From positions 20,586,001-20,646,000 of the forward strand of contig OZ249436.1 in NCBI GenBank assembly GCA_965235115.1: a stretch of 60,000 nucleotides of DNA, written 5' to 3'. Source of the DNA: Laetmonice hystrix (taxonomy: Eukaryota). The position numbers and the translations under genes are program-made. The notes beneath the pieces were generated by a model. The model worked only from the letters and a program-made list of their open reading frames with translations. It was not told the DNA's origin and made no database searches. Below are positions 8,284 to 60,000 of this stretch, one piece after another (within the stretch, counting starts at the first letter, position 1; the number at the start of each line of letters is the position of its first letter).

Positions 8284-8992
8284 AGGTTATATGAGAAAAG
8301 GCAATTACTGCTTCTCGTGCCCCTGCGTTTCGTCAACAATGAGGTGGTCTCTATGGTAGACGCCAGTATTTAGGTCAGTAACTCTTTAAGTCAATTGTTC
8401 TCCCCAGAGGAGGGACGGTTTACTTGGCATCAGAATTAACCAAGACCAACGAACACAAAGAACAGTTGTGAGAGATGGGCCTGGAGCGGCCTCGTCCCCG
8501 GGGAGATTATAGATCGGTCGATGATTAACGGGCACCATGCCGACCGCACGGAGGCGGGCAAGAGCTGCGTCTAATCGGGAACGGACACAGTATCACTTCC
8601 AGCGTCTACTTCTTCTTCTTCTTCATGTTCCTCCAGGACCCAGCACATTACTCATTGCGTGTCAGCCGGCAGGAGTTATAGTCTTAGCCAATTTGGTTTA
8701 AAAAAAATTATAAAGATAGAGATGGGGAAAACAAATCAAGCGTCTTGCTAATTAAGGCATAATTAACGGTTGCCATCCCCATAAACCTATAGGCCTATAG
8801 CTCTTGTTGCAAAAAGTGTGCACTACACTTGGGTTGGGTTTTACAACACCGTATATGACCGATTTTCAAGACAAGAGGTTATATGAGAAAAGGCAATTAT
8901 TGCTTCTCGTGCCGCTGCGTTTCGTCAAGAATGGGGTGGTCTCTATGGCAGTATTTAGGTCAGTAACTCTTTTAAGTCAATTGTTCTCCCCA
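8284..8992. repeat. Direct duplication of ~120 bp (about 8284-8405 and 8876-8992) in the TMEM26 3' region
   Basis: Both copies read GGTTATATGAGAAAAGGCAATTA.TGCTTCTCGTGCC.CTGCGTTTCGTCAA...GTCAATTGTTCTCCCCA. Confidence 0.85.
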
Positions 8993-31740: not shown

Positions 31741-31828
31741 TAGGCCTAACAATCTAATTAAAACTAGATCTTGGTATTCCGCATGCGAAATACCTGAGAT
31801 CTAATTTTAATTAGATTGATAGGCCTAA
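31741..31828. repeat. Near-perfect ~88-bp palindrome
   Basis: TAGGCCTAACAATCTAATTAAAACTAGATCTTGGTATTCCGCAT|GCGAAATACCTGAGATCTAATTTTAATTAGATTGATAGGCCTA, centred on GCATGC. Confidence 0.85.
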
Positions 31829-33017: not shown

Positions 33018-36000
33018 ATGACTGACAAGGATAATGAAAACAACAAGACTAGAGGAGACAGCAAATCCCCACCACACTGTTCAGGTAAGTAGGCTATTAG
33101 GCCTAGGCCTATTGTCCTATTGAGTTTAACTCAGCTGCACACTTCCAGTCAGAAAAAAAATTCTTTCGCTAAATAATATAAACTGAGGAAAATGTTTTGG
33201 AATTAGGCCATCGATCCTAAGTGTCTTATAAATAACTATAGGGTCTAGGCTCTAACAAGCAGGATAGGCCTAGGACATATAGACTAGGGGGTCTTTTAGG
33301 TAGGCCCTATGTCTAGTAAGTTTATTTGTCAGCATTAAGTATTTCTAAACTTCTACTTTTAAACCACGTAGGCCCAGGGACCTAATTTTTTTTATTAACA
33401 AGTAGGCTATATAATAATTATGGAGACCTATCGTTGGCCTTAATTTTTCATAATTAGGCCTACCAGGGCATCCATACCAAGTTTTCACTGTATTACAATA
33501 ATAGTGTCACCTGCTGCACACCAATTTCATTAAATATGCTTCATAGGTGCTACAATTAGTAATTGTCACCTGCTGCACACCAATCAATGCGTGTAAATGC
33601 CTCTCGACACGTAAAGTGATGACGTTTATCATTTATCTCAGACCACCACCTGAGTGGCTATGACGCCGACGTGGAGACGACGCCAGAGGGCGCCGCACCG
33701 AGGCGCTGCTCGCCGGTTACCGCCAGGTGGTGCTCCGACGCCAGTCCGCCCCAGGCCCGCCGTCGGCGGCGCTGCAGGACGCTCTTCACGGACACCGACC
33801 TCCAACAAATGGAGGACGCCTTCCTGGCCGACCCTTACCCAGATATTCTACAGCGAGAGGCCTTGGCCGACCTTCTGGGTGTCACCGAGGATAGGATTCA
33901 GGTGCGGTTTATATACCACTGATAACCGTTATTAGCGGAAGAAGATATGTCTATATCGGGGGTCCAGAGCTCAGATTGCATGTTATTAAAACATTTACCA
34001 CATTGACTTTGTCCGTTGCAGATTTGGCCTGAAAGATTTGACCTCTTATAGGCCCTATATAATTATGTGCCTTTGGAAAATACAATCCCGATTACTATAC
34101 GATAAATCTACTCGTGCATAGATCTAGGCCTAGGTCTATAGGCGACTCCAGGGAAAGCCTTTTCGAGACATTTATTTCTTTTTCTTTCTCTTTTTTTAAT
34201 AAGGCCTAGATCTATACATTTCCTACTTGAACCCGGCTAGATCCGGTATGTTAAAGGCGTGTTCAGGGCCCGGTTCACAAACAAATTCAAGTCCATTTTA
34301 ATTGACTTGAAGTCAATTTTACTTGAATCTGATTGGTTAAAATGGATTTCAAGTTAATTAAAATTGACTTGACTTTGTTTGTGAACCGGGCCCTGGATCC
34401 GCCCCTGCCAACTTGTTTCCATGTAGGTCTATATAGAGAGACAGTGGCGGATCCAGATCAGGTTTTCACAGTAGTGTCTGGAAATATATTTCACTCCGTT
34501 CTGAGAGTTTATAGATCTATGTTGACCATGATATTTCCAGTAAAATCGCTCGCTTCAGCTGGCATTGCCAGGGTCAGTCGAAACTTCCGAGGCCATTTCC
34601 GGTTGAGAAAGAACCTCGGATGTATATCAGTCCCTATGATACAAACGTAAAACGTCTATGTGAGGAGACATCACCGCTCATGTTCTAACGCCCTGCTGCG
34701 TAGTTCCAACGTATGCCTACAGATCGCGGAAACTTATAGATCTGACACAAATTTAGTGCATTTTGGTTATCCGGTGGTATTGTAGCGGGATTTTAACACA
34801 AATTTCAGTTTCAACAACGTTGAAATCCGCGAATCCCCGGAAGATGTTCATCGGTACTCCTAGCGTCCATACTTGAGCTAGTAGAATCTATTATCTATGT
34901 TATGCGGCCACCATTTTAACTAAATCGGCCACGTGACTCCATCGAATCATGTGACTGGAAGTAGTTCAACATGTGGTTCGCGTGGTCGACTCGAGTTAAT
35001 CGGGCTAGTGGTGTTTCACGCGAACTGCCCAGTGTTGTAGCTCTAGTGACGTCATTTGACCTAGTTCGGTCCAACACGACCAACCCACCCCCTTGGCACG
35101 GATTGCTAGTGTTCCGATATGGCGAAGCTCCCATAAGTCATTGCGAATTGGGGCAGTCAAGGCAAGCTCAATGGGCACCGGTGGATAGGAGCGCCAACGG
35201 CCCCTATCGAGAGACCCGGAAACCATTGAAACTCTAGCTCGGAACACTAGTCGGTTCGTGTGACATGGGTTCATTAACATATTCATGAGCAACACTAGTG
35301 TTCCTAGAGTTACGCACGCGACGCTGATTGGACGAGCGCGGCATTGTGACCTAGAAACCTCGACCTTACTCTGGTCCTCTGCTCTAATGCCGGCTCCGCG
35401 AAGCGAGAGAGTCAGGGGACCCGTCTAGGCCACATCCAAATATGGGCAGTCAGGTCAGTGTGCTGACATCTGGTGGCATCAGCCGGCAGATGTATTTGTG
35501 CCCAGTCCGTATATCCAGATATAGGCCTGTATACGGATAGGAGGAATATGGTGGTCGAGTCTAGAGATGTTGCGATTGAGCCAGGGTAGCGCAGTAGAAT
35601 TTGGAACATCTCAGCACAAAGTAACGTCTGAAATGACATGTCTAAAGTGATATTTTTCAAGCTCTATACGTTATTTTTGATGGGGTTGGTTACAACACCC
35701 GGGACCCCCCCCCCCCCCTTGCAGCACGGAGCCTGGGAGGGGGGTCCAACATTGCAGTCCAGGCGACAGAAATATGGAGAGTGGGAATGCTGGCCCACGT
35801 ATAGACCCTATGCCAATGTCTCGACCATATGAGAGGCGGTGGCGGCGGTGGGGGAGGGGGGGGGGTATCTCCTGCCACCTGTCTGCCACCTGTTCTAAAG
35901 GTCGAAGGTCACTCGCATGTACGTGGAATCCTTATATCCACGTCATAATCCGATTATCCTCGACATCCGGGAACTCTTGCATTGACAGAATTTGATATTT

Positions 36001-36824
36001 TAAGCTGAACTCTGCTTGACCTCGTGTCCGTCGTACAAAGACAAGAACTGCTACTGTTTTTAATTAACGCCGTTTCATTATTTCAGGTATGGTTTCAGAA
36101 CAGGCGGTCCAAACGTAAACGACATCTATTGGGCGGAGGCTCTTCGCTCCCGGCAGAATCAAGCTATCATGGCGGGGCAGACAAACTGCGGCCAGTATGT
36201 CGGCCTAACTCTCAGGTATCACCAGGTAACGATCCCACTCTCAGGTGTCTCCGACAGCCGATTTGGACGGCGACAGACGCGGCGCTTGTGAACACCTGCT
36301 ACCCGCCGTACGGATTATGGACTGTACCTGGACACGTACCGTGGCGGCGGCCGTACGGCCTGACAGCGCCCGCCGTACCTGTCCCGACGCCCTACAGCCC
36401 GGTTAACTTCACTACGTCCAACCCAATCTACCTCGGCGGCCAAGCTCTCTTTCGCAGCGCAATTTCGCCATCCCCACTAACTGCCCGGCTTCCTCCATTT
36501 TGTACCTATCAATGTGACTCACTGACCGACCCTTACAGTAGGAGCTGGTCTGTCCAATCTGGTACGAAACTGATGACGCCAACAAGACAGGAAGTACATC
36601 AGAGGACGAGTTCAAGCGTCGGTGACGCCTATATATCGACTTCGCCCTCTGAAACGTCAACACCAGAACAAGATAGGGACAACTCAAGTAAACGGAGGAG
36701 CCAGCCTGCTGACCCCATTCATCGTGAAGTTAGCAGGAAATTCAAACCTAAACGACCTTGGGAAGATCACCCATCAGTATCTTCTATCCTGTCAAACGAA
36801 CAATCCGTGCTAAACATGCCTTAA
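33018..36824 (+). CDS. Divergent PRD-class (Q50 paired-like) homeobox protein (exons 33018-33084, 33642-33901, 36087-36824; ~354 aa)
   Basis: Homeodomain RRRRCRTLFTDTDLQQMEDAFLADPYPDILQREALADLLGVTEDRIQ|VWFQNRRSKRKR with the PRD-class intron between codons 46 and 47. The first exon is less certain. Confidence 0.88.
34267..34392. mobile_element. MITE, PIF/Harbinger-like, in homeobox intron 2
   Basis: CAG|GGCCCGGTTCACAAACAAATTCAAGTC ... GACTTGACTTTGTTTGTGAACCGGGCC|CTG. Confidence 0.8.
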
Positions 36825-37912: not shown

Positions 37913-39398
37913 CATGACACCAAGCCTGAGTCGCCAGCTCGAGTGAATCGGAGCTCTCCAAGTGAGGCCAGAGTTATTCATATCAATAAACCTTGCCTGT
38001 TGTAGTTATAGCCTGATTCTTAGTCTCATTTCCATGTACTACTTACGAAAGACTGCCTGGGTCCAAGCTTGACGACATGTGAAAGTAAAGGTTCCAGTCG
38101 ATAACTCTTCTACAAAACTGAATTCTAAGAATTTAGGGAGTACTGGCCTGGTTGTATCCCATCCCATTAAAACTAAACCTGTTTCCTCAGGTAATTATGG
38201 GATTTCTAAAACGCACTGTATGCCTTCATTTAGGGACACATGGCAATCCAGCGAGCATTGAGTACAGACTGAACCCATGATATTGAACATTTATGCGAAA
38301 GCCATCCCTGGCGATGTACATTATGAGTAAATTACTTTGGACATCGGTATAATGGGTGGACCCAGAGCGCGATGTCGAGACGTCAAGAACATTTACCTAC
38401 TGAATTATTTCAAAGCGATAGCGAGTGTGGCGGAGTGCATTGTGTGTGCAGGCGCCGAGTCGATTCGCGCATATCTCGGGGAAATTGTCGCATTACTCCC
38501 GACCGTACCGGCATGTGTGCTTAAGTCGGCAGATACCAGCGGTATTACGAATATATGGCTGGCTTACACACAGTCTTCACTGCTTTACAGACAGGAAATC
38601 CGACAAGGAAAATAAATAAAACGAATAGGCTCGCTTACAAGGCACGCTTTATGTCAGAGTAAAAGAGGATAAATGTCATCAGTAAAGTGGGGCTGTGGCA
38701 GAGAGCTAGATCTCGACCCCGATAAAAGGCGACCCTTTATTGGCACGTCTTAGTGCAGGCTGACGGCCACTAGTCCACCGAGGTTGACTGGTGACCGTGG
38801 CTGGTATACGGCAGACAATGCGTGCAGCTCTGTGCCTGTAGCTCGCTGAGACTGGTATCCACTGCCTACACGTCGGGAGGAGAAGGCAGTTAGTGGGAGA
38901 CGGAGGATTTCCTCAACGATATCAGTCATTGTCGCCTTGCAGCTGGTGCTATTTTACCGCTGGTGCTGGTTTGTGGTGCTGGTGCTGGAACCGCTGGTGC
39001 TGGCGGTGGTGGTGGTGGCGGTATTGGTTAAAACGAGAGAGAGTGAGCAGATGCTGTTGACGCATAATTGTTTGAGGGTGTCTCCCCACTTGGCTGGAAT
39101 TCACGGATGGTAATGACGGTGGCGATGCTACTCCTCCCGTCACCAACACACCGCTCAGCACGTCGCATTGACCCACACACCTTCCTCCAGCGTCGGTTCC
39201 TCCATGCTCCGAGATATTAGCCCGGTGCCGGTGGTATTTAAGGGTTCGTGCTCCGTGATGGCCTGATTGGCGGGTCATAGATTAAGTCTACCACGTAACA
39301 AGGAAGAGACGGTGTATAGCTACACCATACGGTATACATTACACATTGATTACGTCTCAGGCCTGTCACCCTGCGTCTGAACTACTCGACTCGTGACA

Positions 39399-39824
39399 AT
39401 GGTTGGCGGAACACGACCTATGATCAGGACGAGTCACGAGGCCCGGCGGAGATCGAGCGTGGCCGTGATGAGTGTCACGCCAGACCAGCTCCAGTACCTG
39501 AGCGTGACGGGCACCGACCCGCACGGCCGCCCGCCATCCCCCGACAACAGGCGGCCTTCGTTCGGATCGGACGGGAAGATGACGCCACCCTCCCCCCTCC
39601 CCGGCTCCCGGAGGGGCTCGTACGTCGGCCCGCCACTGCCCAACGGCAGCCCTTCTCCAGCACGTAGGAAGTCGGCCTTCAAGGACGGCAAACCGCCTCT
39701 CAGACGTTTTGACACTTTTAACATGGAGCTCAAGAACAGTAGAATTATCATCACGTTGATAATAGTCTGTGGATGCTGCCTGCTGGTGGCTGTCGTTTCC
39801 TATGCGGTCAGATCCTATCTGTGA
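39399..39824 (+). CDS. Small uncharacterised tail-anchored membrane protein, paralogue A (~141 aa)
   Basis: Single coding exon after acceptor gtctcag (39360); GC-rich codon usage; C-terminal hydrophobic segment IIITLIIVCGCCLLVAVVSYAV; amino-acid-level similarity to 54555-54950. Confidence 0.8.
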   Translation: MVGGTRPMIRTSHEARRRSSVAVMSVTPDQLQYLSVTGTDPHGRPPSPDNRRPSFGSDGKMTPPSPLPGSRRGSYVGPPLPNGSPSPARRKSAFKDGKPPLRRFDTFNMELKNSRIIITLIIVCGCCLLVAVVSYAVRSYL

Positions 39825-40544
39825 TACTGTTTCATGGTCAGAAAAAAATACAAGGAGCTGGAAAGCAAAAGCAACTACCGTATTCGGGCTTCTACATGTT
39901 TCTCTGAAGGACTTGCTTGAACTAGTCGCCCGTCTTGGAACCTGTATACACCTGTTGATATAGTGACTGATCTCCTATAAACGTTATGCAGCCAGTGATA
40001 TACGAACATAAGGAATATGCAAATAAGGTCAAGTCATGACGGAACTATATTCTCATTCCTGATTCACAGACTGCAAAGACCTACTATTTTACTTCGCATG
40101 ACGTATGATGGCAATATAATGTGCAGAGGCTTATTACATGTCCGTAAAAAAAACCGTCGCTATATACTCCCTTAACGAACGCGAGGACGGAAAGCAAGAG
40201 TGTACAGTAGCAGACCTACCTCCAACACAATGGTCACGTATCTAGGACGTAACGCTATATGAGAACTAACGTTGACGGACTCGCTTCACGTAATATTAGG
40301 ACACGGAAGGTGTTTGTATGAGGCGTGACGGTATCTGGTGCTTCCTGGTAACAAATCTTTCGTCTGTACGCATTGCACACACAGGCTTACATGTACATAA
40401 AGCCTAGATGGAAAAGTCCGAACATGTATACATACTTACAGATAGGCCTGCATGCATAGGCCTACATACATAATATACAAACGTGAAGAAGTCTATACAT
40501 TCATACATGTAGACTACATGCATAGCCTACAACATAAATGATTT

Positions 40545-41480
40545 ACATACCTAGTCCACTAAAAGCCTCCATGTACACCCACACATACGTACCTAGTCCA
40601 CTACAAGCCTCCATGTACACCATACATACCTAGTCCACTACAAGCCTCCATGTACACCCACACATACATACCTAGTCCACTGCAAGCCTCCATGTGCACC
40701 CACACATACATACTTACTCCACTACAAGCCTCCATATGCACCCACACATACATACCTAGTCCACTACAAGCCTCCATGTACACCATACATACCTTGTCCA
40801 CTACAAGCCTCCATATACACCCACACATACATACCTAGTCCACTGCAAGCCTCCATGTGCACCCACACATACATACCTACTCCACTACAAGCCTCCATGT
40901 GCACCCTCACATACATACCTAGTCCACTACAAGCCTCCATGTGCACCCACACATACATACCTAGTCCACTACAAGCCTCCATGTACACCCACATATACCT
41001 AGTCCACTACAAGCCTCCATGTACACCCACACATACATACCTAGTCCACTACAAGCCTCCATGTACACCCACACATACCTAGTCCACTACAAGGCTCCAT
41101 GTACACCCACACATACATACCTAGGCCCCTACAAGCCTCCATGTACACCTATACATACCTAGTCCACTATACAAGCCTCCATGTACAGCCACACATACAT
41201 ACCTAGTCCACTACAAGCCTCCATGTACAGCCACACATACATACCTAGTCCACTACAAGCCTCCATGTACACCCACACATACTTGTCCACTACAAGCCTC
41301 CATGTACACCCACACATACTAGTCCACTACAAGCCTCCATGTACACCCACACATACATACCTAGTCCACTATACAAGCCTCCATGTACACCCACACATAG
41401 ATACCTAGTCCACTACAAGCCTCCATGTACACCCACCCATACATACCTAGTCCACTACAAGCCTCCATGTACACCCATGT
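40545..41480. repeat. 38-44-bp minisatellite (~22 copies)
   Basis: Unit ATACATACCTAGTCCACTACAAGCCTCCATGTACACCCACAC. Confidence 0.96.
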
Positions 41481-44400
41481 ATAGATCTGCATGCCTAGGC
41501 CCTACAAACCTCCATACATATAGTGGTCAACAGGGTTCTATTAGATCACAAGGTCTGCACTTCAGTGTCGTATTATACCTTCCAGTAGTCAGTAGCGACT
41601 GCGTTTAACAAAATTATACAAAACTATTTTCTTAAATATATATATGTAAACACACAGCACTAAACACCTCAGCAGTTTATGTATTATAGTTTACTCTGTT
41701 TTAAAGATTACTATGTAGATTGCCAGAATATACTTGAATGCAATATGTAAAATAAGTGCACGTAGTTAGTGCCCTGCTGGCCGGGAGCGCCATGATGTAT
41801 TATATAGTGATATTTCTGTCCGAGGGCGTTCTACAACACCATAAACGACATTAGAGCCTCGTTATTATCTCCTTCTCTGTGACTGGCAAGTAAACTCTAC
41901 ACATCTACTTAGTGTTGTTTTTATTACAATTTCCTTATGGCGTCCAATCAATCCGTCCCATGGCGTGGAGTTGTATCTCAAATTGCAGCGTGTATGAACC
42001 AGATATCAGATGGATTCATTAAGGAGATTGTGAAGCGTACATTGTTTGCCTATTGTCCCTGCAGATTTTAAGTTAATCCCGATATGCACACATGAACTAA
42101 CATTTATACCTATAGATCTATAAAGTATACACAAAGGTATATTTCCTTAGTGCATATACTGAGTTCACGAGGACGAACGTCTCCACATGAAGATATATGT
42201 GTATAATATATGTATCTGTCCAAATCTAAACTCTAAATGCTAAAATACTAAAATACTTACTCAATATCAATTAAAACCGATTCATATCGACATGTTGGTG
42301 TCGGTTTTTGCCTCAAGAGCAGGCATACATTTTAATCAAGTCTAGAACATTACACTGATCCACTGGAAAGATTAGTCTTCGTGATAAAATCTCTCTTGTA
42401 CCATTTGACAATCTGCCATGCCCATCGCGAGGAGTTGACATTTTCTTTTCACATAAATTGGGCCCATTAGCATCTAAAAATATTGAGTTATTCCCCGCGC
42501 GCGCCCAGAAAGGACTGTCGGGATTTCTATTGTCGACAACATTCTATAGTGCGCTATATTTCCTTCTCGCCGACAACTCGTCTATATAAAGATTCCACTA
42601 TGTTCACGTCTTCGGTTCAGCATGTGAGTGCTTGATTCCGAAATAAATTTAAGCATTTTCTTCGATACTGCCCTGCCGTAGCCACCAACGGAAAATGACG
42701 GTTCTGTCTTAAGTTCTTACTGGATAAAAGCTAGGTAATAAACGTTGCACAGAAACTCTTTAACAGATGATTCCGTTGAAAGCGCTAATTTTCTACGATT
42801 TTGTATGTTCAGGTATAAAACTGAGTTGTTACCAAACCACACAAATAACACAAAAATTACTTGGCAAACTTCAGGAAATGTTTTCCATCAAACTTGTGGA
42901 TTAGCCTTAGTTGAGGTTTTATATCTAAGAGAGAAAAGGCATGCAAAAATAAAATATGAAATGCTACTCAAGTCTTGATAATTACCGGTAAGAAAAATGG
43001 TAATCGGCATGCCAAAGACCAGTTTGTCGTGCATAATGATGCCAACTTTCCCAAGGCAATTCCAAGGCCATTCTCCTCTGTCTTTATCAAGGAAGCTCTC
43101 CCTCCGCAGGTTCCTTCGTCAATCACATACGTTATCTAGAGTTACCTAATCATCTCCGTGATGATCTGGTGATAAGAAGTCTTTTAAGTAGCGATGCAAA
43201 CCCCTCGGAGCTACTTACCACCCTGATAGGGCGATGTACATGAATGGGATGTTGAGATCAAACAGAACGGGTGCTGTGATACGACCACCGTCCCCAACAC
43301 TATACATTCATTACGAGAATTGTCGAGTTCCCAGGCCGCCATTACTATCTCCTGTTCGCGTCGCTTGCTGCCAGGGCCATAGATTTATGAGATTACCCCT
43401 CAGTTCTAATACAGTGGTTCCGTGGTTCAACTTATTACATGATATTTGGCTGAAATAACACATTCTAATGCTCCCATATAAAACTCTAAAATCTGAGGGG
43501 AAAGGTACAGATCAGTGATCTTTGTTTTAAGAAGCGGTATGAGGCCCTCTAAACTGCTGAAAATGTAAAGAAAAAGAACTCGCAATGTTTTTTTCTGATT
43601 TGCTTCAATAACAGAGATGCGTCTAACAGGAAAATATTATTTTGAAGGGGAAAAAGAAGAAGAGAAAGCAATGCGTTTAGTCCTGTCAGCTTCTGTCGGT
43701 CTTGTATCTGAACGCTGCACAAATGTCAAAAACAAATGAAACACAGTGGTCGGCGTAATTAGTGAATGGTATAATCATAATGACGGCAGGACGATTGTAT
43801 ATGTAAAATTACATCCTTATTGTAATCTGAGCTTTACACAGGAACTATTGGACAGAACACAATATGGGCACTTCACATTTCTGAACGATGACAAGAATAA
43901 AACTGCTGAGCCGCCATGACGTGCGCCATGGCGACAAATAGAACACAATGTGGTCGAGTTGATATAAAGAGTGACCCAGGAAAATTCAGGATGGGAGTTT
44001 ACATAGTACTTCTACCTACTATTCATAATAATTAATTTCAACCCTTTTCAACACACAGGTACATAATGTGTGTACACATTTACTACATAGGAGCGTTCGT
44101 TTACGACATTATAGTACTCTCTTTGCTCCCCAAAATTTATTATATAATAAATAATGAAATATTTCATGCTGAATTTAGCTGGGTCACCCTATTATCGTAT
44201 CCGGGACGTGGATAATGAGAAAAGTGGCAAACACATGATTATAAAGGTTCGGTTATTATTGCAATGGTTACTATGGTAACTATAGGTGTCAAGGCTCGAA
44301 TTAAATTAAATCGCTTGGGTCGAAATGATCAAGGACCTATTTTGTTGATCTCACCCCTCCCCCCCCCCCCGCCCCCGCTCTTACCCGCGAACTAGGACTA

Positions 44401-47400
44401 TACTGTAAAAGGCGCACGCACGAGCCGACCGTGGGGATTTGGTTCCAAATCTCGTGTAGCAACCAAATCGCCTACAGCAACCAATCAGGTACCTCATTCT
44501 CACGTGACCCTAGGCAGGGTGTCATCTTTTAAATCTTTCCAGCCGAGCGAGTAGCAGGCTTATAGAGGCGGGTACCAGAGCTGGGTTCAGCGTTATCTCT
44601 CTCCACATCAATATTACAAGGTAAACTGTCTTTACACCTGACCGTCAAGTCGCTTCTGAAGAATACTCATTGACGCTGCATGGCTATCATTCACTTTTTG
44701 TCTCTAACCATGCATTTAATCTAATTTAATTTATGAGTTATGTATGAGTTAAACGATACAATAGCCATACTCGTTTCCATAACCCCCCAACTCATTTTCA
44801 TAAACGATGTCGGCTTCAGCACAGCGGTTCGTAAGTGTATCTTATAATACACGACAACGCCACATAAATAATGTGTCATCTCTCAACATGGTCTGCCGAC
44901 GAAATGGATAATACGGCAGGGATGCCAACGTTGGCAGATTATACAGCGAGATGAACAATCTGGAAAGGGAACAATTCGCCGGAAGCCACATTGGATGTCA
45001 TATTTGATTATTGCCACAATCACCGCAAGTCGCCGAATTGACTGAGGACTAATCCCATGCATGTCCTTGGGTATAGCTCTGAGTGAAAGAATAAAACATT
45101 TCTGCTTCAGGCTCCAGGGCCCAAGTTTTAATAATCACTCCATCAACAATACTCTCAATTGTAATTTAGTTTTTGGAAAATCTGGTTGTAACCAAGTCGA
45201 TGCTGCTCTCATCCTGCCTGTCCCTATGGGTCATGATAGAATGGAACAACCTTTGACGACTGACTCTCTAAGTCCGGGCTGGTTTGCTGTTTGTGTATCG
45301 CAAACATTAATTGTATTTTAATGACTACTGACTAGATATTTGTTAGGTAAAGATAATTATGTCGGTTTTACATTGGCCCCAACGATGTCGATCAATCCGT
45401 AGATCTAGGATTTCTTTTGATAGGTGTCTAATGATATACGGAACCATCACGCCCCCACAGATATAAAGTGATTGTGGTATGCATACTAATTTCATCCCGA
45501 CAGGCCTACTAATTCCATTCCCGACTTGGTTCAATTATAGGGACGCACTTAACGCCAACGATTGTTAGTGCTTGTGTGGATTATGAGTTCGATCGATCGT
45601 AAAATCGTTGGATATTGAAGGTTGCGCGGGGGAAAGTATCAAGGAACTTTATTACTTTTGGTGGATTCTTTTATAAAGCCAGAATGACAGGTATTGATGA
45701 ATCATCCCTGGCGACCGAAGGATTATTTAAAGTAAAATAAATATGGTTACTAAACATTCCATTATATTCAAAACGACTTTGCTATTAAATGACAAAAGAA
45801 GGCTACGAAATGCAGGCGTGCCTTGAAGACAAAACTATCAGAGTTGGTCACATTGCCGATCATTGTCCAGATTGACAGCCCGGGGTGACACTATCAGTAA
45901 AACTCCGCTCCCAATCCCCTATAATTACCGTACCCCTGTCGTCAGATTGGGCGCGGCTTTCCATCACCCCATAGTCACGACGGTGACGTGTTAGCTTAAG
46001 GACGAAATCTACGTCTCGGCGATTGCCTCATGGACGAGGTAATATGCCAGCTAACGAGGTCAAACACAGCCATTCTATCACACTTATAAACGTCACGTTC
46101 TCACAGAGAGGCGACACTGGTTTCCAAATCACTCCGTCTACTGAAAGCCTATCACGTGACTGCTATGCGCGCAGACGGCGTACGTATTTGGGTTTATAAA
46201 TCTGATGAAGGAAGGAAAGCAGTGAAATCGTTCTCATACTGGAGAGAGTATCGTGAAGGGGTGAATAACGACTACCTCCTCTTGATAATCTACGACGCAC
46301 GCGGGCCAGCCTGATTGCAAATCCAGACTAAAATGATAGATCTGAGCGAGGACCATTGCTTGTGGCAACCGTATATCTCGAGGAGGTGTCCGTTTTTTCT
46401 ATATTATCGTTTTCCTGTATTGATTTTCTGAAATAAAATCCGCCAAGGCCCGGCCCACGTCGGTGGTCACATTTGATGTGACCCCACACATCGGTTTCCA
46501 GCCCCCTATCCGAGATGGTTTTACATTGGCGAGAACTGACCCCCTGACCCCATGGAGATTTATTAGGCTCCGGTCTCCAGGCAGGAGGAAGTCTTGATGT
46601 GTTTAATGTCATGGTGCCCCGCACAATCTTAAAGGGAAGTATGGAACCTTTTTAATATCAGATTCTATTTCGTAAATAACGCTGACCAAAGACAAACATT
46701 ACAAATCAAAAAGAAAACTATGCTTTTCATTGCGTATCATTGGGACATACGACAACAATGCATTGAAGCGTATAGATCTAAATCAATTATGAGTACAGGC
46801 TACATACAAAAGGTAGGCCTATATTTCATCATTCGTACGATGAATCCCCTCCCTCTCCACATGCTCGCATGAATTCAATCAGTTCAGACGCCGTCTAGTT
46901 GGCGATAGGATTTGAGCGGCCGGTTTTCCGAACTGAAACTGCGCACTCGATTTGGTCTCCTCGTGATCCGATTACCGCCATGTTCGGCGTGCATGAAACC
47001 AATAGATTAACACAATTTACATAAGGGTCCAACCCTAATGGAGCTGGGATGCCGTCTTTATTGGACTACCTCTAGTGTTTCAAGTTTGACAATATTTTAA
47101 TATTATATCAATGACTTCTTGTAATTCTCCCTAATAACATTTCTACATTTACACTGATCGCTTCTCTGGTGTGCAATAATAACCAATCTACATTCTTTGA
47201 TATGAAGATATGATTAACGGTAATTCTGAAATGTTAATGATATGATAATAACTTTAGAGATCCAGATTATGAGGTTATGCCGTGCACTAAAATAAACAGG
47301 GTCTCCTTCCATCCATGTGTGTCAGTCTCCCAGGATTTATCATACTTCATTACGGTTGTTAAGTTGGTTATGTTGCAGTTATCTCGTCACAGAGACCTTT

Positions 47401-47837
47401 ACATGGTACAAAGATTTATCTACAATGTTTTTTTGTGCCAGAGAACATAAAATGACGAGCCATGAGCAGTTTAAAAGATGCTATCTCATCTTTAGAAGCC
47501 GTGTAACGGTTACACAACTCAGCCAGTCGCAGGCCACCTTTGTTAGCGCTCCCTGGTGGTAAATGTTGTCGTTAAGGAGGGTTATCATTCCGTATTACCA
47601 TGGTCCTCACAATGTAATCCGGGAACGCAGCTCGCTTGTATGACTTTAATCTCCTCCTTGTCATATCTGCTGATGTATGGAATTTAAATGGCTTCATAAT
47701 GAGATATTTTTCTCGCTGCCGATGTGCGTTATTTGGTCGAAACTAATCGTGACGAACCTGAAGTCATCCATGGGATTCAGCCAGGCTCGTGGGCGTTCTT
47801 TTTATTCCTGGAGGTGGGTTGTGGTTGTTATCCATTT

Positions 47838-47838
<1 letters not shown>

Positions 47839-47870
<32 letters not shown>
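47839..47870. repeat. (GA)n microsatellite
   Basis: Direct reading. Confidence 0.95.
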
Positions 47871-47873
<3 letters not shown>

Positions 47874-49104
47874 CCCTTTTCCATGAATAGGGTAATTCTA
47901 TGGCTGTAAGAACGGTTGGAAATGCCATAAATATTTTAGTGAAATCATTTTGAAATTTTGATAATCATTTTGAAATTCAAAGACTTCTTGATTACCCTGT
48001 CTTCCCTTTTTCTACCCTGGTTGTTGTCTTCCCTTGTGATTTTTAAAATTTAATAACCAGAAACGAAGCACACCACACTGACACAAAATGGCCTGACCAC
48101 ATGAATTTTGGTACTGCAAATATTGCAGCATCCCAGTTTCTGACAGCTGTGATGTTTTTGCTTAAAACAAAGTCACTGTGTTTCTTTAAGTTTCCTTCAT
48201 TAAGTAAAAGTAAATGAGCAAATGACCCCGACTACTTTAGGGAAGAGAGATGGGAGACAGAGATAGAGAAATAGAGAGATGAGAGAGAGACAGAGAGAGT
48301 TCACTACCAGTTGTACGGTAATGGATAAGATGAGGGAAACACGCTCAAGTATAGCCCATCTATCCCTAATTCTAGATCCAATCATAGGCCTAAACAGGAC
48401 ACACTTTTGGTCTAAAGAAATTAAAAAAAAACATCGCCTCGAAGAAGAAGAATAAGGACATTTTCAATCGACTGACCCAACAGGCTGTCCTCCACATATT
48501 CCCTTAAAGACCTAGAGCTGCCAACATGAAAACATTGTTTTATCGAGCCTTTCCACCTAGTTCTATTCACAAAAGAAAACTTGGTAATAGCGTCTGCAGA
48601 AGCAGTTAACCCAGTTGTTACCCTCAGACCGTAAGAAAATCTGGTAGAAGAATGAGTTGTAGAGCTAGTGAAGTTAATCAACCATCTGGGCCCCAACCGC
48701 TCGCAGAACTGTTCTCTGTCATGGCTGATCTTACAATATATCTGAAGTGATTCGGTTACGTTCAACAGTCGGCTCGGTTCAGCCAACAGTTTCAGACGGC
48801 GACCGGGGTTTCCCGGCGAATCTCCAATAAATCCATGGTGGTTAAAATATAGAGCGCAGGCATATTGATTTTTGGAAATTGTTTTTTTTCCACTCTAAGA
48901 GCTTGGTCTGACCTCGAGTGGCTTCTCTTCGACATTGAAGTAACTCTCTATCAGACAAGGTCCTCGACATGATCGGCGCTTTGAATGTTATACACTTGAA
49001 GGTACATGGTTCGCAGTTGAAAACTGATAGAACTTGGTTTTCTGAGATACGGTACACAATGTGACATATACTCATGACCTTAGATAATGTAAGACAGGTC
49101 CCTA

Positions 49105-49648
49105 AAATAACACGGACATACAGGTGGTAAAGATGTTTATCATGACAAATAACACGGACATACAGGTGGTAAAGATGTTTATCATGACAAATAATACGGA
49201 CATACAGGTGGTAAAGATGTTTATCATGACACGGACATACAGGTGGTAAAGATGTTTATCATGACACGGACATACAGGTGGTAAAGATGTTTATCATGAC
49301 AAATAATACGGACATACAGGTGGTAAAGATATTTATCAGGACAAATAATACGGACATACAGGTGGTAAAGATGTTTATCATGACAAATAACATGGACATA
49401 CAGGTGGTAAAGATGTTTATCATGACAAATAACACGGACATACAGGTGGTAAAGATGTTTATCATGACAAATAACATGGACATACAGGTGGTAAAGATGT
49501 TTATCATGACAAATAACATGGACATACAGGTGGTAAAGATATTTATCATGACAAATAACATGGACATACAGGTGGTAAAGATGTTTATCATGACAAATAA
49601 CATGGACATACAGGTTGTAAAGATGTTTATCATGACAAATAACACGGA
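49105..49648. repeat. 42-bp minisatellite (~13 copies)
   Basis: Unit AAATAACACGGACATACAGGTGGTAAAGATGTTTATCATGAC. Confidence 0.96.
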
Positions 49649-50092
49649 TGTGTTTCTCCTAAATAACCTCACAGATTAAACGGAAACTCATCGTACGATG
49701 ATAATCATGTTTTATTGGTTCTCTTACATAATCAAACGGACTGGTCCGTGATCCGTGTCTGTTCGTAAGAACGAACGGTTTTCATAACAATGGACCACGT
49801 ATATATTGACAATAACACAACAATCCCTTATAAGATTTCTGAATATTAAATATACCAGACAGTTCTGGGCTGACGAAGACTTGCACTCCTCTTATAAACG
49901 GCTCCACTAATCGAGTCACTAATCGAGTGGATTCCTTTGGTTTGGTTTGGTGACGCTGCACGTGTTAAAGTCAACATCTGTGCGTGTTCCTTCATCTCGA
50001 GTTGGTCCGACATGTTGATACTTGGCAGTCTACAGGGATCGATGATCGAACACATACTGCTATAAAGCTGTAAGACATCAGGCATCAGGCAT

Positions 50093-50830
50093 CAGACATG
50101 GGCCTGTACTGACTCGCCTTGTTAGACATGGGGCTATACTGACTCGCCTTGTTAGACATGGGCCTGTACTGACTCGCCTTGTTAGACATGGGCCTGTATT
50201 GACTTCCCTGGTTAGACATGGGCCTGTACTGACTCGCCTTGTTAGACATGGGGCTGTACTGACTCCCCTGGTTAGACATGGGCCTGTACTAACTCGCCCT
50301 GTTAGACATGGGCCTGTACTGACTCGCCTTGTTAGACATGGGCCTGTACTGACTCCCCTTGTTAGACATGTCCTGTACTGACTCGCCTTGTTAGACATGG
50401 GCCTGTACTGACTCACCTGGTTAGACAGTACTAACTCGCCTTGTTAGACATGGGCCTGTACTAACTCGCCTTGTTAGACATGGGCCTGTACTGACTCGCC
50501 TTGTTAGACATGGGCCTGTACTGACTCGCCTGGTTAGACAGTACTAACTCGCCTGGTTAGATATGGGCCTGTACTGACTCACCTGGTTAGACATGGGCCT
50601 ATACTAACTCGCCTGGTTAGACATGGGCCTGTACTGAATCCCCTGGATAGACATGGGCCTGTACTGACTCCCCTGGTTAGACATGTGCCTATACTGACTC
50701 CCCTGGTTAGACATGGGCCTGTACTGACTCCCCTGGTTAGACATGTGCCTATACTGACTCCCCTGGTTAGACATGGGCCTGTAATGACTCCCCTGGTTAG
50801 ACATGGGCCTGTAATGACTCCCCTGGTTAG
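50093..50830. repeat. 30-bp minisatellite (~25 copies)
   Basis: Unit GTTAGACATGGGCCTGTACTGACTCGCCTT / ...CCCTG. Confidence 0.96.
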
Positions 50831-51780
50831 AAATCGCGATGTTTTGGCGAATATAATTATGGTATAACATTCTGTAGCTTGATAACTGTGCAGTCTGTTC
50901 AACAGGTCCAATACCAAACCAAATCTGACCAAAAAATAATGAATCCTTACGAACACGTTCTCCATATTGCAAGGGTTATGTATGTAGTTTTTTGCGTGTT
51001 TCTTTTTCAAAAAAATGGATCGGCATCAGTTCCTAATGACAGCACACATAAAGCAGGACGGGTGGCAGTCATAGATCTCCTACACTAAATCACGTTGACG
51101 TGTAGCATTCGTTGTGAGCTGTCCTAGTGAGACAGAAGGTCAAGTGATCGAGCCAGCAGTGACTGAGAGTTTTCCTGACCAGATCCTGATTAGATGTGCC
51201 GTACGTGACGCTGTCTGACGTGCCCGGCGTGTCTTCAGACCACTGGTCTCGGCACGATCTGTATGGATCAAAAACAACAGGTTCGTCTCATTAGTTCATT
51301 TCTATTCCGTACAACTGATCATCAAGTTCGTTTAGATATTTTGGCTTACAGAGAGCATCAAAAGACCCTACACGGTCGGCTGGGGTAATTTCCGTGGTCT
51401 TGCTATTTTACTGTGATTCTAACTTTGAAATCAAATCCCACTCGGCAGTACTTGCTGGCCATTTTCTTGTTTTTTTTATACTTTCAATTCTAAATCGCAT
51501 TATTTAAATTATTGATTCATTCGTTTGTCCGAGATCATATTTAATACACGAGAAATGGAGATATTGAATGTTTGCCCGACATCTTTTGTTCCCCGTACAC
51601 CCACTTAGAGTTAGTATTTAATTTGATGTTTGATGAAAAGGTAATGGCTGGTACGGTGGACGACTCATATTCATTAGTTTACCCACGGTGCCTGTAGTAT
51701 AGTGCAGTGCTCAGGCATTAATAGGATTTTCCACCAACCAACTTGGTTCACACGGGGCGTTCACCCATCTACAGTCTGCA

Positions 51781-52510
51781 TACTGAGTGTCACAACCAGC
51801 CCATATAGGGGGCTAGTGGAGTGTCACAGCCAGCCCATATGTAGGGGCCTACTCTATCAGGTACTGAGTGTCACAACCAGCCCATATGTAGGGGCCTACT
51901 CTATCAGGTACTGAGTCTCACAACCATCCCATATATAGGGGCCTACTCTATCAGGTACTGAGTCTCACAACCAGCCCTTATGTAGGGGCCTACTCTATCA
52001 GGTACTGAGTCTCACAACCAGCCCATATGTAGGGGCCTACTTTATCAGGTACTGAGTCTCACAACCAGCCCATATGTAGGGGCCTACTCTATCAGGTACT
52101 GAGTGTCACAACCAGCCCATATGTAGGGGCCTACTCTATCAGGTACTGAGTCTCACAACCATCCCATATATAGGGACCTACTCTATCAGGTACTGAGTCT
52201 CACAACCATCCCATATATAGGGGCCTACTCTATCAGGTACTGAGTCTCACAACCAGCCCTTATGTAGGGGCCTACTCTATCAGGTACTGAGTCTCACAAC
52301 CAGCCCATATGTAGGGGCCTACTCTATCAGGTACTGAGTCTCACAACCAGCCCTTATGTAGGGGCCTACTCTATCAGGTACTGAGTCTCACAACCAGCCC
52401 ATATGTAGGGGCCTACTCTATCAGGTACTGAGTCTCACAACCAGCCCATATGTAGGGGCCTACTCTATCAGGTACTGAGTCTCACAACCAGCCCTTATGT
52501 AGGGGCCTAG
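51781..52510. repeat. 47-bp minisatellite (~15 copies)
   Basis: Unit TACTGAGTCTCACAACCAGCCCATATGTAGGGGCCTACTCTATCAGG. Confidence 0.96.
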
Positions 52511-53199
52511 TGATACGTTATCAGGTGAAGCCACTTCCACGTCGTGGTTCAGCGGAACGATAGAGATTAATTGCTCCTCGGGTCCCTAGATCTGTTTGCC
52601 ACTATTACTAGTCTAGTTCATAATTAGGCCTATACACACAATTCTGCAGGTGTAAAATACGCCGTGGAATCCTACGTATGTAATAACATAGATTTAACCC
52701 CTTCCGATTATTACTAATACAAATGTACATAAACGTTGGTGGCAACGACCGCCACACATTCTTTTTCCCGGGCCCGCGCGATAAAATGCCACTGTTAACT
52801 ATTTACCCCATGTATTTTTACTCACTGGCTTGCGACTAAAACATCTCAACTTATGGGAAAAGAAACTGGCGTTTCATACAATCTTTTTGAAGCGTTTGTA
52901 TAACCTGCCCTAATTTGTTTCATATATTTTGCCGACGTTATAATCAATTGTGAAATATGATAATCTGGCCGCGGCTGTCGGCCATTTAATGGAGCAGTCG
53001 TTGCGGCCGTCAGGAACAGGACGGCCCGTTGTTTGCTGAAGGCGCCAATGTCCGCCGACTATTTATGCATCCCGATTCTCATTATACCGAGAAGGCAGGA
53101 AGTAGGCGAGGAACAGATGGACAAGAAAACACTATAGATTCACTGTGTCACACCAACAATATTAATACTACAACTCGTCACTCTCTCACTGGCAATGTA

Positions 53200-53454
53200 A
53201 ATAGTGAACGGTTGTGTTTTATTTTACACTCTCTGAATAGTGAACGGTTGTGTTTTATTTTACACTCTCTGAATAGTGAACGGTTGTGTTTTATTTTACA
53301 CTCTCTGAATAGTGAACGGTTGTGTTGTATTTTACACTCTCTGAATAGTGAACGGTTGTGTTTTATTTTACACTCTCTGAATAGTGAACGGTTGTGTTTT
53401 ATTTTACACTCTCTGAATAGTGAACGGTTGTGTTTTATTTTACACTCTCTGAAT
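53200..53454. repeat. 36-bp minisatellite (7 copies)
   Basis: Unit AATAGTGAACGGTTGTGTTTTATTTTACACTCTCTG. Confidence 0.96.
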
Positions 53455-54554
53455 GCAATTGATGTTGTACGATATTATGGACGTTCTCATATCGCAGTGA
53501 TTAGCAAACAGGCAGTGGTCACGCCGGGCCCCAATCACCATCCGTCAGATACGTGGACGGACCCACTCAATGCGGGCTCGCCTGGCAGACGACACTGTTT
53601 GCCTTTCGCCGACCGCCACTCAATGAGCTCTCATTTGATAAGATTTGACAATGAAGAAAAACCAAGAGAGGCTCTGAGAGAAAATACGAGACGGAGAAAA
53701 AATATGATGTGTAAATATTTATAAATTCTATTAGGCAACAGAGCAAGAAACGTGTTTTGGGTACAACATCATATTTGACCTTACTCATTTAACAAAAAAA
53801 AGTATTCTGGGCTGGACATTCAACGTTACTTCACCGATTAATGGTACATTCAAACCTAGGATCAACCCAGAAAACGTTGGAGAACTTCGTCTCCTCATTA
53901 AAGAGTTAACATACCTTAATTAATCCCCACTTACCTGTCCTATTCCCGAAAATTGTCTAATCGATAACACAACACCCCTATCAAAACCAGGTCGTGTACC
54001 TGTCACATTTTGAATAGGACATGCTGAGCTGTTTGAAATTTGAAATTTTATGCGCTAGGGAATAGGACAGGTAAGTGTGGGGGGGGGGGGTTAAGGTATA
54101 CCGACAGCCATTCCGAGATCTAGAAATCCGTCCTGCGGTTTCATTTTTACGTCGATCAAATATTTCACGAAGGAATAAAACATAATACCTTTGATACTCC
54201 TTGACCTTGATGAAGACCTGGTAAGACAAAGACGAGCTATCAGCGGCAGCCACCTTGACATCCGGTTCGTCTGGCGGGAAAACAAAGGCTGGTCCAACAA
54301 CGTACCTTCAACAACATCACCAACACGTTGTATTCATCAGATGGCATGCCTCCCGCATTACTTCCACAACTAGGATGTAGATGTTGTGTGTAACTGGTGG
54401 CCGTGTAATTCCTTAACCAGTGATGCATACTGGACAATGTACAACTTCACCGTCAACGACAGCGGCTATAATGTAGCTAAACGATGGCACTATGGCTTCT
54501 ATAAGGATAGGCCTACTGACGCTGGATGACTGACTCTAAGCTGTTATCTCCAAA

Positions 54555-54950
54555 CTAGAGTTTTAAGTATGACTTTACAGCGTAAGAAAGCAAAATAATA
54601 AGCATTCCGCATCCACATATGATAAAGAAGGTTGCCCAGATACTACTCCTTCGTATCTCCATATTGAATGTGTTGAATCTTTTTAATGGAGGCTTGGGCC
54701 GACGGCGGGGCACCAATGGACTACAGTTTGCCGGTGAGTTGGCAAGGGCCTGGAAAGGTGGGCCCTTTCCCGGCAGCGCCCCTAGGGAGGATCGGCGCAC
54801 ATCGCTCGACTGCGCCGACCCTTCGAGCCCTGGAAGCGATGGCCGATGTTGTTGCTGGCTGAGGGCTGCCAGATACGCGGCCTGTTCAGCGCTGGCGGTG
54901 GCGCTCGATCGCCTTCTCTGCTCATGACTCGTACGAATAAATGTCCTCAT
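54555..54950 (-). CDS. Small uncharacterised tail-anchored membrane protein, paralogue B (131 aa)
   Basis: accATG start; C-terminal hydrophobic segment IWATFFIICGCGMLIILLSYAV; shares conserved blocks with 39399-39824. Confidence 0.8.
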   Translation of the reverse strand: MRTFIRTSHEQRRRSSATASAEQAAYLAALSQQQHRPSLPGLEGSAQSSDVRRSSLGALPGKGPPFQALANSPANCSPLVPRRRPKPPLKRFNTFNMEIRRSSIWATFFIICGCGMLIILLSYAVKSYLKL

Positions 54951-58242: not shown

Positions 58243-60000
58243 ACCAACCCAGGCTAGTGGTGGTATTCCCAGCTCCACACACCACTATCCATCAGTAAAT
58301 GATTTACTCACGGAGCTACCTTACCAACCCAGGCTAGTGGTGGTATTCTCGTGATTCCCAGCTCCACACACCACTATCCATCAGTAAATGATTTACTCAC
58401 GGAGCTACCTTGCCAACCCAGGCTAGTGGTGGTGGTATTCTCGTGATTCTCAGCTCCACACAGCACTATCCATCAGTAAATGATTTACTCACGGAGCTAC
58501 CTTGCCAACCCAGGCTAGTGGTGGTATTCTCGTGATTCTCAGCTCCACTGTGACACCATCCATCAGTAAATGATTTACTCACGGAGCTACCTTACCAACC
58601 CAGGCTAGTGGTGGTGGTATTCTCGTGATTCTCAGCTCCACACACCACTATCCATCAGTAAATGATTTACTCACGGAGCTACCTTGCCTACCCAGGCTAG
58701 TGGTGGTATTCTCGTGATTCTCAGCTCCACACACCACTATCCATCAGTAAATGATTTACTCACGGAGCTACCTTACCAACCCAGGCTAGTGGTGGTATTC
58801 TCTTGATTCCCAGCTCCACACACCACTATCCATCAGTAAATGATTTACTCACGGAGTACCTTGCCAACCCAGGCTAGTGGTGGTATTCTCTTGATTCCCA
58901 GCTCCACACACCACTATCCATCAGTAAATGATTTACTCACGGAGCTACCTTACCAACCCAGGCTAGTGGTGGTGGTATTCTCGTGATTCCCAGCTCCACA
59001 CACCACTATCCATCAGTAAATGATTTACTCACGGAGCTACCTTACCAACCCAGGCTAGTGGTGATATTCTCGTGATTCTCAGCTCCACTGTGACACCGTC
59101 CATCAGTAAATGATTTACTCACGGAGCTACCTTACCAACCCAGGCTAGTGGTGGTGGTATTCTCGTGATTCTCAGCTCCACACACCACTATCCATCAGTA
59201 AATGATTTACTCACGGAGCTACCTTACCAACCCAGGCTAGTGGTGATATTCTCGTGATTCTCAGCTCCACTGTGACACCGTCCATCAGTAAATGATTTAC
59301 TCACGGAGCTACCTTACCAACCCAGGCTAGTGGTGGTATTCTCGTGATTCTCAGCTCCACACACCACTATCCACCAGTAAATAATTTACTCACGGAGCTA
59401 CCTTACCAACCCAGGCTAGTGGTGGTATTCTCGTGATTCTCAGCTCCACACACCACTATCCATCAGTAAATGATTTACTCACGGAGCTACCTTACCAACC
59501 CAGGCTAGTGGTGGTATTCTCGTGATTCCCAGCTCCACACACCACTATCTATCAGTAAATGATTTACTCACGGAGCTACCTTACCAACCCAGGCTAGTGG
59601 TGGTATTCTCGTGATTCTCAGCTCCACTGTGACACCATCCACCAGTAAATGATTTACTCACGGAGCTACCTTACCAACCCAGGCTAGTGGTGGTATTCTC
59701 GTGATTCTCAGCTCCACACACCACTATCCATCAGTAAATGATTTACTCACGGAGCTACCTTACCAACCCAGGCTAGTGGTGGTATTCTCGTGATTCTCAG
59801 CTCCACACACCACTATCCATCAGTAAATGATTTACTCACGGAGCTACCTTACCAACCCAGGCTAGTGGTGGTGGTATTCTCGTGATTCTTAGCTCCACAC
59901 ACCACTATCCATCAGTAAATGATTTACTCACGGAGCTACCTTACCAACCCAGGCTAGTGGTGGTATTCTCGTGATTCTTAGCTCCACACACCACTATCCA
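58243..60000. repeat. ~89-bp tandem satellite (about 20 copies, runs off the window end)
   Basis: Unit CCAACCCAGGCTAGTGGTGGTATTCTCGTGATTCTCAGCTCCACACACCACTATCCATCAGTAAATGATTTACTCACGGAGCTACCTTA; period 89 (59763 and 59852). Confidence 0.97.

Follow-up and report, generated by a model that had tools for sequence, protein, structure and literature searches.

Two convergent paralogues from Laetmonice hystrix represent an unnamed family of small, predicted tail-anchored proteins rich in PKA-type motifs

A 60,000-nucleotide stretch of contig OZ249436.1 of Laetmonice hystrix (assembly GCA_965235115.1, positions 20,586,001 to 20,646,000 of the forward strand), referred to here as the window, contains two open reading frames (ORFs), A and B, encoding small proteins with a predicted membrane helix near the C-terminus and repeated RRxS motifs, the kind of site recognized by cyclic AMP (cAMP)-dependent protein kinase (PKA). 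A and B are anciently duplicated animal genes under purifying selection and, judged from sequence comparisons, they belong to a conserved gene family that is unnamed, absent from Pfam, and built on a known design. The genes are convergent, tail to tail, with a spacing of 14.7 kb, as described in the original prediction, which was made from the DNA letters and reported two ORFs on opposite strands about 15 kb apart. Their features, in window coordinates, are listed below.

39399..39824 (+), coding sequence of gene A, ATG to stop, 141 amino acids (P0001); ORF with relatives 62-84% identical
39336..39360 (+), candidate splice acceptor of a 5' untranslated exon of A; AG at 39359-39360, pyrimidine fraction 0.63
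39414..39461 (+), A, N-terminal extended kinase-site motif, residues 6-21, acceptor Ser20
39462..39689 (+), A, disordered linker rich in Ser, Arg, and Pro, with RRxS at S54, S74, and S92
39690..39743 (+), A, juxtamembrane block, hydrophobic-x-R-x-x-T (T106) plus N-x-[ED]-[LIV]-[KR]
39744..39809 (+), A, predicted single transmembrane helix, residues 116-137
39810..39821 (+), A, four-residue C-terminal tail
54555..54950 (-), coding sequence of gene B, ATG to stop, 131 amino acids (P0002); ORF, nearest relative P0007 (64% identical)
54900..54950 (-), B, N-terminal motif, residues 1-17, acceptor Ser16
54696..54899 (-), B, variable linker with RRxS at S55
54642..54695 (-), B, juxtamembrane block, hydrophobic-x-R-x-x-T plus a further RRxS (S103)
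54576..54641 (-), B, predicted transmembrane segment, residues 104-125
54558..54575 (-), B, six-residue C-terminal tail

In a single BLASTP comparison, A and B align over their full length with 58 of 143 positions identical (41%, E 4e-29), and the N- and C-terminal blocks to which conservation had been ascribed are present in this alignment. The coding DNA of the two genes shows no similarity by blastn (word size 7, gene regions including the ORFs); the sole match between the regions, 26 nt with an E-value of 0.39, lies outside the ORFs. Of the 38 residues that are identical within the blocks, 27 are encoded by different codons, and differences at the first, second, and third codon positions number 24, 9, and 42. 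Over the 60 codons of these blocks, the proportion of differing sites is 0.25 for nonsynonymous (pN) and 0.93 for synonymous positions (pS), giving a pN/pS of 0.27, which rises to 0.50 over all 127 aligned codons; the synonymous substitution rate (dS) is not estimable because synonymous sites are saturated. The expected picture of protein-level conservation, diverged DNA, and purifying selection thus holds. Our results demonstrate that A and B are real genes, a point on which hardly any doubt remains.

The assembly around A is confirmed by contigs from three runs that span positions 37950-40500 gap-free, one of them as a single piece. These runs come from one sample of one study, their depth is flat across coding and non-coding DNA, and they inform on assembly and haplotypes only. 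None of the 20 haplotype differences listed near A (12 substitutions and 8 indels; three more differences from the spanning contig, which have no listed place, are excluded) falls inside the ORF, against 3.3 expected (P 0.026, or 0.045 with four clustered ones counted once).

The spacer between the genes (40544-53454) carries five minisatellites with periods of 42, 42, 30, 47, and 36; its frames of at least 90 codons include no recognisable gene. A six-frame search of the window with the A and B proteins and a profile detected no third family copy. The segment 47422-47520 (tblastn E 0.096, profile E 2.8), within an 88-codon frame at 47296-47559 (+), contains five residues resembling the family N-terminal motif; it has neither an arginine run nor a helix and was rejected as a copy, the resemblance being regarded as chance.

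An unnamed gene family

A single-sequence search with A yielded four relatives with 62-84% identity. A HMMER profile of six sequences, scanned without length limit against 1.84 billion representative sequences, gave 32 matches of 95-202 amino acids with E-values up to 0.001, and two word-index searches, confined to near lengths, added four further relatives. The resulting set comprises 39 sequences: A, B, and 37 relatives, 35 of which reach an E-value up to 0.001 in some search, while P0037 (E 0.084) and P0042 (E 0.039) are weaker and were retained for their N-terminal motif. All counts given here exclude eleven near-duplicate cluster members, and N-terminal counts also exclude the fragments P0014 and P0024. 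When separate profiles of the N- and C-terminal blocks, built from the six closest sequences, were compared with about 990 shuffled control sequences, 25 of 33 other members scored above the best control for the N-terminal block and 29 of 33 for the C-terminal block, showing that the family link is not mere low complexity.

In a midpoint-rooted tree, one group unites A with P0003-P0006 (support 100/97), another places B alongside P0007 and P0010 (99/97), and the node joining them has a support of 92/83, which is under the mark set by the tool. Since identity is 84% between A and P0003 and 64% between B and P0007, compared with 41% between A and B, the duplication predates the split of the relatives' lineages. 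From this divergence we infer that the relatives belong to other species.

A cluster lookup of 24 relatives returned one informative label, that of BaRGS_00007115 (KAK7501684.1, P0041), a hypothetical protein of the gastropod Batillaria attramentaria. It matches the wide profile with an E-value of 2.2e-5 over 21 aligned N-terminal columns (its first 21 residues), a distant link of the weakest kind, and scores no better than background when compared with the narrow profiles of the two blocks derived from the six closest sequences. Like A and B, this protein, which is itself uncharacterised, has the same start, the N-terminal motif in register, and a C-terminal helix; it carries seven RRx[ST] sites and, unlike most family members, lacks the juxtamembrane motif. 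A lophotrochozoan range is likely for the family, on labels as thin as these. An arthropod branch is possible: in the ESM Atlas, queries with P0001 and the distant P0039 both returned first the same three arthropod clusters (scores 0.77-0.82), leads only, with lengths of 128, 112, and 114 amino acids and 73-86 members. Pattern scans with the six closest sequences, which reach close relatives only, found no relatives in viral contigs (4 stretches) or prokaryote genome contigs (16 stretches). Of 17 stretches from metagenome contigs, one passed; it resembles the juxtamembrane motif over a short length, then runs into a stop, and was rejected as chance.

The relation of these proteins to known families was examined at several levels, and the family remains unrecognised, as first stated. 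None of the 39 proteins has a match at the Pfam cut-off, and weak matches scatter over unrelated single-helix families, varying from member to member. Sec61-beta, RAMP4, TRIQK, and InaF, considered as possible resemblances, were dropped after none of the 39 proteins matched them in Pfam. A profile search of the PDB returned at best K2P-channel helices (E 2.9 or worse), and no named homologue was present among the 32 profile matches. The literature, searched in main texts that include few subscription papers, gave nothing on the family for the motif strings, the gastropod locus tag, or descriptive terms beyond one unrelated listing; phosphoproteome tables in supplements could hold family members. 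Detectable similarity fades fast in short low-complexity proteins, and the family might be a remote branch of a characterised one, for example of the regulins or of a small arthropod or nematode membrane protein, that has drifted past search reach. The recurrence of the same arthropod Atlas clusters with two members would fit such an origin, as would the tail pattern [RK]-x-Y (R/K in 33/36, Y in 21/36), which recalls the start of sarcolipin RSYQY. We nevertheless consider it improbable, given the inconsistent Pfam matches, the unrelated PDB hits, the lack of a common Pfam family among the Atlas clusters, and the lack of a name for any profile match.

The family also bears on the question of whether the ORFs are complete. 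If each were only the terminal exon of a larger known gene, its cytosolic part would be a linker ahead of a C-terminal anchor, and an acceptor-like AG does lie 38 nt upstream of the A ATG. An in-frame stop at 39378-39380, however, sits between this candidate acceptor and the ATG, and an in-frame stop separates the A ATG from each of the 10 AG dinucleotides in the preceding 200 nt. The same is true of 14 of the 15 AG dinucleotides before the B ATG, the remaining one being purine-rich (pyrimidine fraction 0.26). Across the family, counting back from the acceptor Ser and including it, a Met is found at 16-20 residues in 34/37 members (exactly 16 in 17), and it is followed by Arg in 30/37, although gene callers begin proteins at Met by construction. 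All eight library ORFs with long N-terminal extensions contain an internal Met in the family register, and the annotated B. attramentaria gene begins at the same Met. The upstream stops and the family-wide Met register make it extremely unlikely that A and B are in-frame last exons, which agrees with the original prediction. Its description of the ORFs as single-exon stands for the coding part and not for the whole gene, where the acceptor-like sequence indicates a possible 5' untranslated exon of A.

Architecture and kinase sites

The proposed tail-anchored layout is borne out by hydropathy and structure prediction. All 39 proteins have a hydrophobic segment near the C-terminus, uncharged over 19-27 residues and with a hydropathy of 2.4-3.4; the uncharged stretch is 22 residues in A and 24 in B, with 19-residue Kyte-Doolittle means of 3.06 and 2.37. 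Elsewhere, judged by hydropathy only, windows reach at most 0.56 in A and 0.11 in B, and exceed 1.2 in one of the 39 proteins, in the N-terminal extension of P0033. By this measure, the proteins have one C-terminal helix and no second membrane segment or signal peptide-like stretch. In the AlphaFold2 model of A, a single helix (113-140) is predicted with confidence and nothing else is structured, the linker being disordered; a four-copy model of residues 95-141, made without an alignment, scored 0.02 and is not counted as evidence. The cytosolic part carries a net charge of +4 to +17 across the family, with a linker rich in Ser, Arg, and Pro.

Two further attributes that had been suggested did not extend to the family. 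The tail is mostly short and its net charge ranges from -4 to +4, so a basic tail is not a rule. Palmitoylation at a CGC motif is not a family trait: CGC occurs in 3/39 members, the membrane segment of 16/39 contains no Cys at all, and the cysteines that occur are located in the middle of the helix.

Within the helix, positions I116, T119, I122, V130, S134, and Y135 (A numbering) are conserved. In the 36-row alignment, S134 is Ser in 32 and Ala in 4 sequences, V130 is Val in 31, and T119 is Thr in 21, and conservation shows a periodicity at 100 degrees (P 0.013). Ahead of the helix, a hydrophobic-x-R-x-x-[ST] motif is found within 22 residues in 29/39 proteins, against 3.6 expected, and is followed by [ED]-[LIV]-[KR]. 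LxRxxT is a consensus of CaMKII/PKD-type kinases.

Conservation of the N-terminal motif extends over 13 residues ending in RRRxS, with the consensus M-R-x-x-[ILF]-R-T-S-H-[ED]-Q-R-R-R-x-S-hydrophobic. In a register anchored on RRRx[ST], in which one row is off by one, the positions counted from the acceptor Ser are hydrophobic at -11 (36/37), R at -10 (33/37), T at -9 (29/37), S at -8 (33/37), H at -7 (27/37), E/D at -6 (35/37), and Q at -5 (27/37). The acceptor itself is Ser in 36/37 and Thr in 1/37, with no non-phosphorylatable residue.

RRx[ST] sites are enriched in both Laetmonice proteins, with 5 in A against 0.34 expected (P 0.0005) and 3 in B against 0.29 (P 0.003), a tally in which RRRSS counts twice. 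The description of the proteins as packed with RRxS fits A better, since B carries S15/S16, S55, and S103; likewise, the RRGS and RRKS sites placed in the middle region of both occur in A and are absent from B. In the cytosolic parts of the family, RRxS occurs 169 times, compared with 11.9 +/- 3.3 in composition-preserving shuffles. RRxT is not enriched (6 against 5.2 expected), and KRxS (8 against 3.3), RKxS (10 against 3.4), and the reversed SxRR (18 against 11.9) give lower counts than RRxS, while Pro at +1 of RRxS is absent (0 against 1.4). In the unalignable linker only, 93 RRxS sites are present against 7.1 expected, in 36/37 members; this enrichment in a region that does not align indicates conservation of site number with shifting positions. 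Among the 39 proteins, the patterns of PP1 (0 against 2.6) and calcineurin (0 against 1.0), the 14-3-3 mode I pattern (15 against 11.1), and Ser/Thr-Pro (95 against 82.7) are not enriched.

The direction of the motif, the Arg-Arg pair, and the specificity for Ser match the recognition pattern of a PKA-type kinase. At the level of motifs, the sites have Arg at -3 and -2, favour Ser, avoid Pro at +1, and lie in a disordered cytosolic region, as in PKA substrates, and the PKA-type signature that had been read from A and B is thus found across the family. According to a study of solved PKA-substrate complexes (10.1101/2023.10.24.563811), the -3 and -2 arginines and a hydrophobic residue at +1 contact the kinase, and so does the -7 side chain, which is Tyr in RyR2 and Arg in phospholamban. 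Our findings suggest that the family members are very probably substrates of a basophilic, PKA-type kinase. The extended N-terminal site, the juxtamembrane LxRxxT, and the conserved helix face add family data that strengthen the original case.

Proposed mechanism and rival functions

By analogy with known small membrane subunits, we propose that these proteins may be tail-anchored, PKA-switched regulatory subunits of a pump, channel, or transporter, with a phospholamban-like design without being regulins by sequence; we give this reading a probability of about 0.45. The C-terminal helix would be inserted in the secretory pathway with the N-terminus in the cytosol, as its length, its strong hydrophobicity, and a tail that is commonly neutral or acidic suggest. 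Such helices and tails are unsuited to mitochondrial or peroxisomal targeting, which would place the proteins in the endoplasmic reticulum (ER) or the plasma membrane. The helix probably binds a specific partner, and the best candidates for it are ion pumps, channels, or transporters located in the ER or plasma membrane. A helix face with the polar residues T119 and S134, together with the juxtamembrane block, would pack on this partner, while the basic arm would maintain the unphosphorylated state by contacting the partner or acidic lipid electrostatically. When cAMP rises, PKA would phosphorylate the N-terminal and linker sites and neutralise the arm stepwise, which would relieve or alter the effect on the partner. 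A CaMKII/PKD-type kinase acting at the juxtamembrane LxRxxT could provide a second input.

Phospholamban combines a PKA site at Ser16, a CaMKII site at Thr17, and an inhibitory helix (PMC10058886). The SERCA regulins (phospholamban, sarcolipin, the sarcolambans, and another-regulin) and A and B share a single C-terminal helix, a cytosolic N-terminus, and a short luminal tail (a predicted topology for A and B). The regulins further resemble the family in a PKA-type site near the N-terminus, a second, CaMKII-type threonine, and a tail with [RK]-x-Y, which in most members corresponds to part of RSYQY only; in 17/37 members the acceptor falls at residue 16 counted from the Met, like Ser16 of phospholamban, which may be coincidence. 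Phospholamban, sarcolipin, and the sarcolambans have 52, 31, and 33-45 amino acids (PMC10058886; 10.1101/2020.07.19.211243). A and B, at 131-141 residues compared with 31-52, exceed this micropeptide size. The family also differs from the regulins in a linker of 60-80 residues with several more RRxS sites, in a Thr site beside the membrane instead of adjacent to the PKA Ser, in lacking the regulin WLL, and in showing no similarity to them in Pfam or PDB searches.

Other known systems share parts of this design. FXYD1/phospholemman, a Na,K-ATPase subunit with type I topology and an N-terminal FXYD motif, is likewise a small single-pass subunit with a PKA-site switch; it has the opposite topology, with a signal peptide, a luminal FXYD motif, and cytosolic C-terminal sites, and none of these features occurs in A and B, whose helix is C-terminal and which have no Pfam match. 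The linker resembles the R region of CFTR, which is disordered, basic, and bears many RRxS sites whose number outweighs their place. The R region is part of a channel, in contrast to the family segment, which belongs to a separate protein with its own anchor.

Several observations weigh against a PKA-switched regulatory subunit. The juxtamembrane motif is absent from 10/39 proteins; the helix-face signal is modest, with a power of 49.5 at 180 degrees against 47.0 at 100 degrees, and T119 is replaced by Ile in 10/36 sequences. The motif counts come from 39 related sequences retrieved with an RRxS-containing profile, so they are not independent, and overlaps are included. PKG, RSK, Aurora, and PAK kinases recognise RRxS as well, so the kinase need not be PKA. 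The neighbours in the window include no pump or channel. There is no sequence link to a regulin or channel subunit by Pfam (E up to 10) or PDB comparison, in which short targets limit power, and the proteins have 2.5 to 4.5 times the length of phospholamban, sarcolipin, or the sarcolambans.

Two other functions were weighed against this reading. As a trafficking adaptor or client chaperone, the helix would escort a client from the ER, and RRRxS would act as an arginine-based retention signal switched off by phosphorylation. Three arginines precede the acceptor Ser where PKA needs one fewer, although the RRR count (37/37) is partly by construction, the motif being anchored on arginines. Phosphorylation abolishes COPI binding of TASK-1/3 (PMC4760375), a precedent for such a switch. 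Xport-A is described as a 116-residue tail-anchored Drosophila chaperone of rhodopsin-1 and TRP with a disordered N-terminus, which binds its client through the helix, has a 24-residue luminal domain, and is insect-specific (PMC10663829). Compared by description only, it resembles A and B in size, disordered cytosolic N-terminus, and single helix near the C-terminus, and differs from them in using this luminal domain where A and B have tails of 4-6 residues. The classical internal 14-3-3 pattern is barely enriched, and a retention signal leaves the several further RRxS sites of the linker unexplained; an adaptor function therefore appears unlikely. The many RRxS sites per protein could instead suit a membrane-tethered PKA sink or scaffold that buffers released catalytic subunit and sets a cAMP threshold, with no regulated partner. 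Conservation over 13 N-terminal residues goes well beyond catalytic need, and the hydrophobic residue at -11 corresponds to the position at which PKI docks on PKA. PKI-type pseudosubstrates, however, have a non-phosphorylatable residue at the acceptor position; the family acceptor is always Ser or Thr (37/37), which indicates a substrate, and the conserved polar helix residues would be needless for a plain anchor. We regard a sink as quite improbable.

A narrower form of the regulatory-subunit reading, speculative and in our view improbable, would make the family an invertebrate functional counterpart of phospholamban, evolved independently or diverged past recognition, that binds a calcium pump or channel by one face of the helix and gives a graded response to cAMP and calcium/calmodulin through a detachable multisite phosphorylation arm, with a widespread lophotrochozoan and possibly arthropod range. 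If true, it would link serotonin and cAMP directly to calcium handling or excitability in the muscle and neurons of worms and molluscs. Vertebrate kinases steer pumps and channels through small single-helix subunits, few of which are known beyond vertebrates and insects, and regulation of a pump or channel by this family would reveal a new cAMP route to membrane transport in lophotrochozoans. Without such a role, it would still be a conserved gene family missing from Pfam and old enough to have separate paralogues. Because invertebrate genomes commonly contain unnamed families of small membrane proteins, the surprise is limited until a partner is found.

Other features of the window

The surroundings of A and B are typical of an animal genome, with a BTB-BACK gene, a TMEM26 exon, and an intron-split homeobox. 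The homeobox gene is paired-class-like and lies 2.6 kb upstream of A on the same strand (33623-33901 and 36087-36824, +). Its intron, with the donor after 33901 and the acceptor at 36086, splits the recognition helix just ahead of VWFQN, and its best solved matches are the DUX4 and aristaless homeodomains. An uninterrupted frame of 723 codons at 4267-6438 (+) encodes BTB (E 2.6e-26) and BACK domains, and its C-terminal 490 residues have no Pfam match. The TMEM26 exon is located at 9053-9799 (-, E 1.1e-54), and just downstream of it, 8284-8406 is a 90% repeat of 8876-8992. Exon-like open frames at 19487-19957 (-), 24372-24716 (+), and 26475-26984 (+) have no Pfam match with E up to 1.

Repeats are found in other parts of the window. 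Positions 10371-13136 contain two arrays of one 50-bp unit (10854-12189 and 12595-13133), inverted around a 400-bp spacer and adjoining a weak ZSWIM3_N match (E 1.3e-4, below cut-off); from its sequence, this region looks like a fold-back or Mutator-type element. Two imperfect palindromes, at 31741-31827 (88 bp) and 34256-34403 (149 bp), are possibly small transposon remnants. An 89-bp array within 58265-60000 continues past the end of the window.

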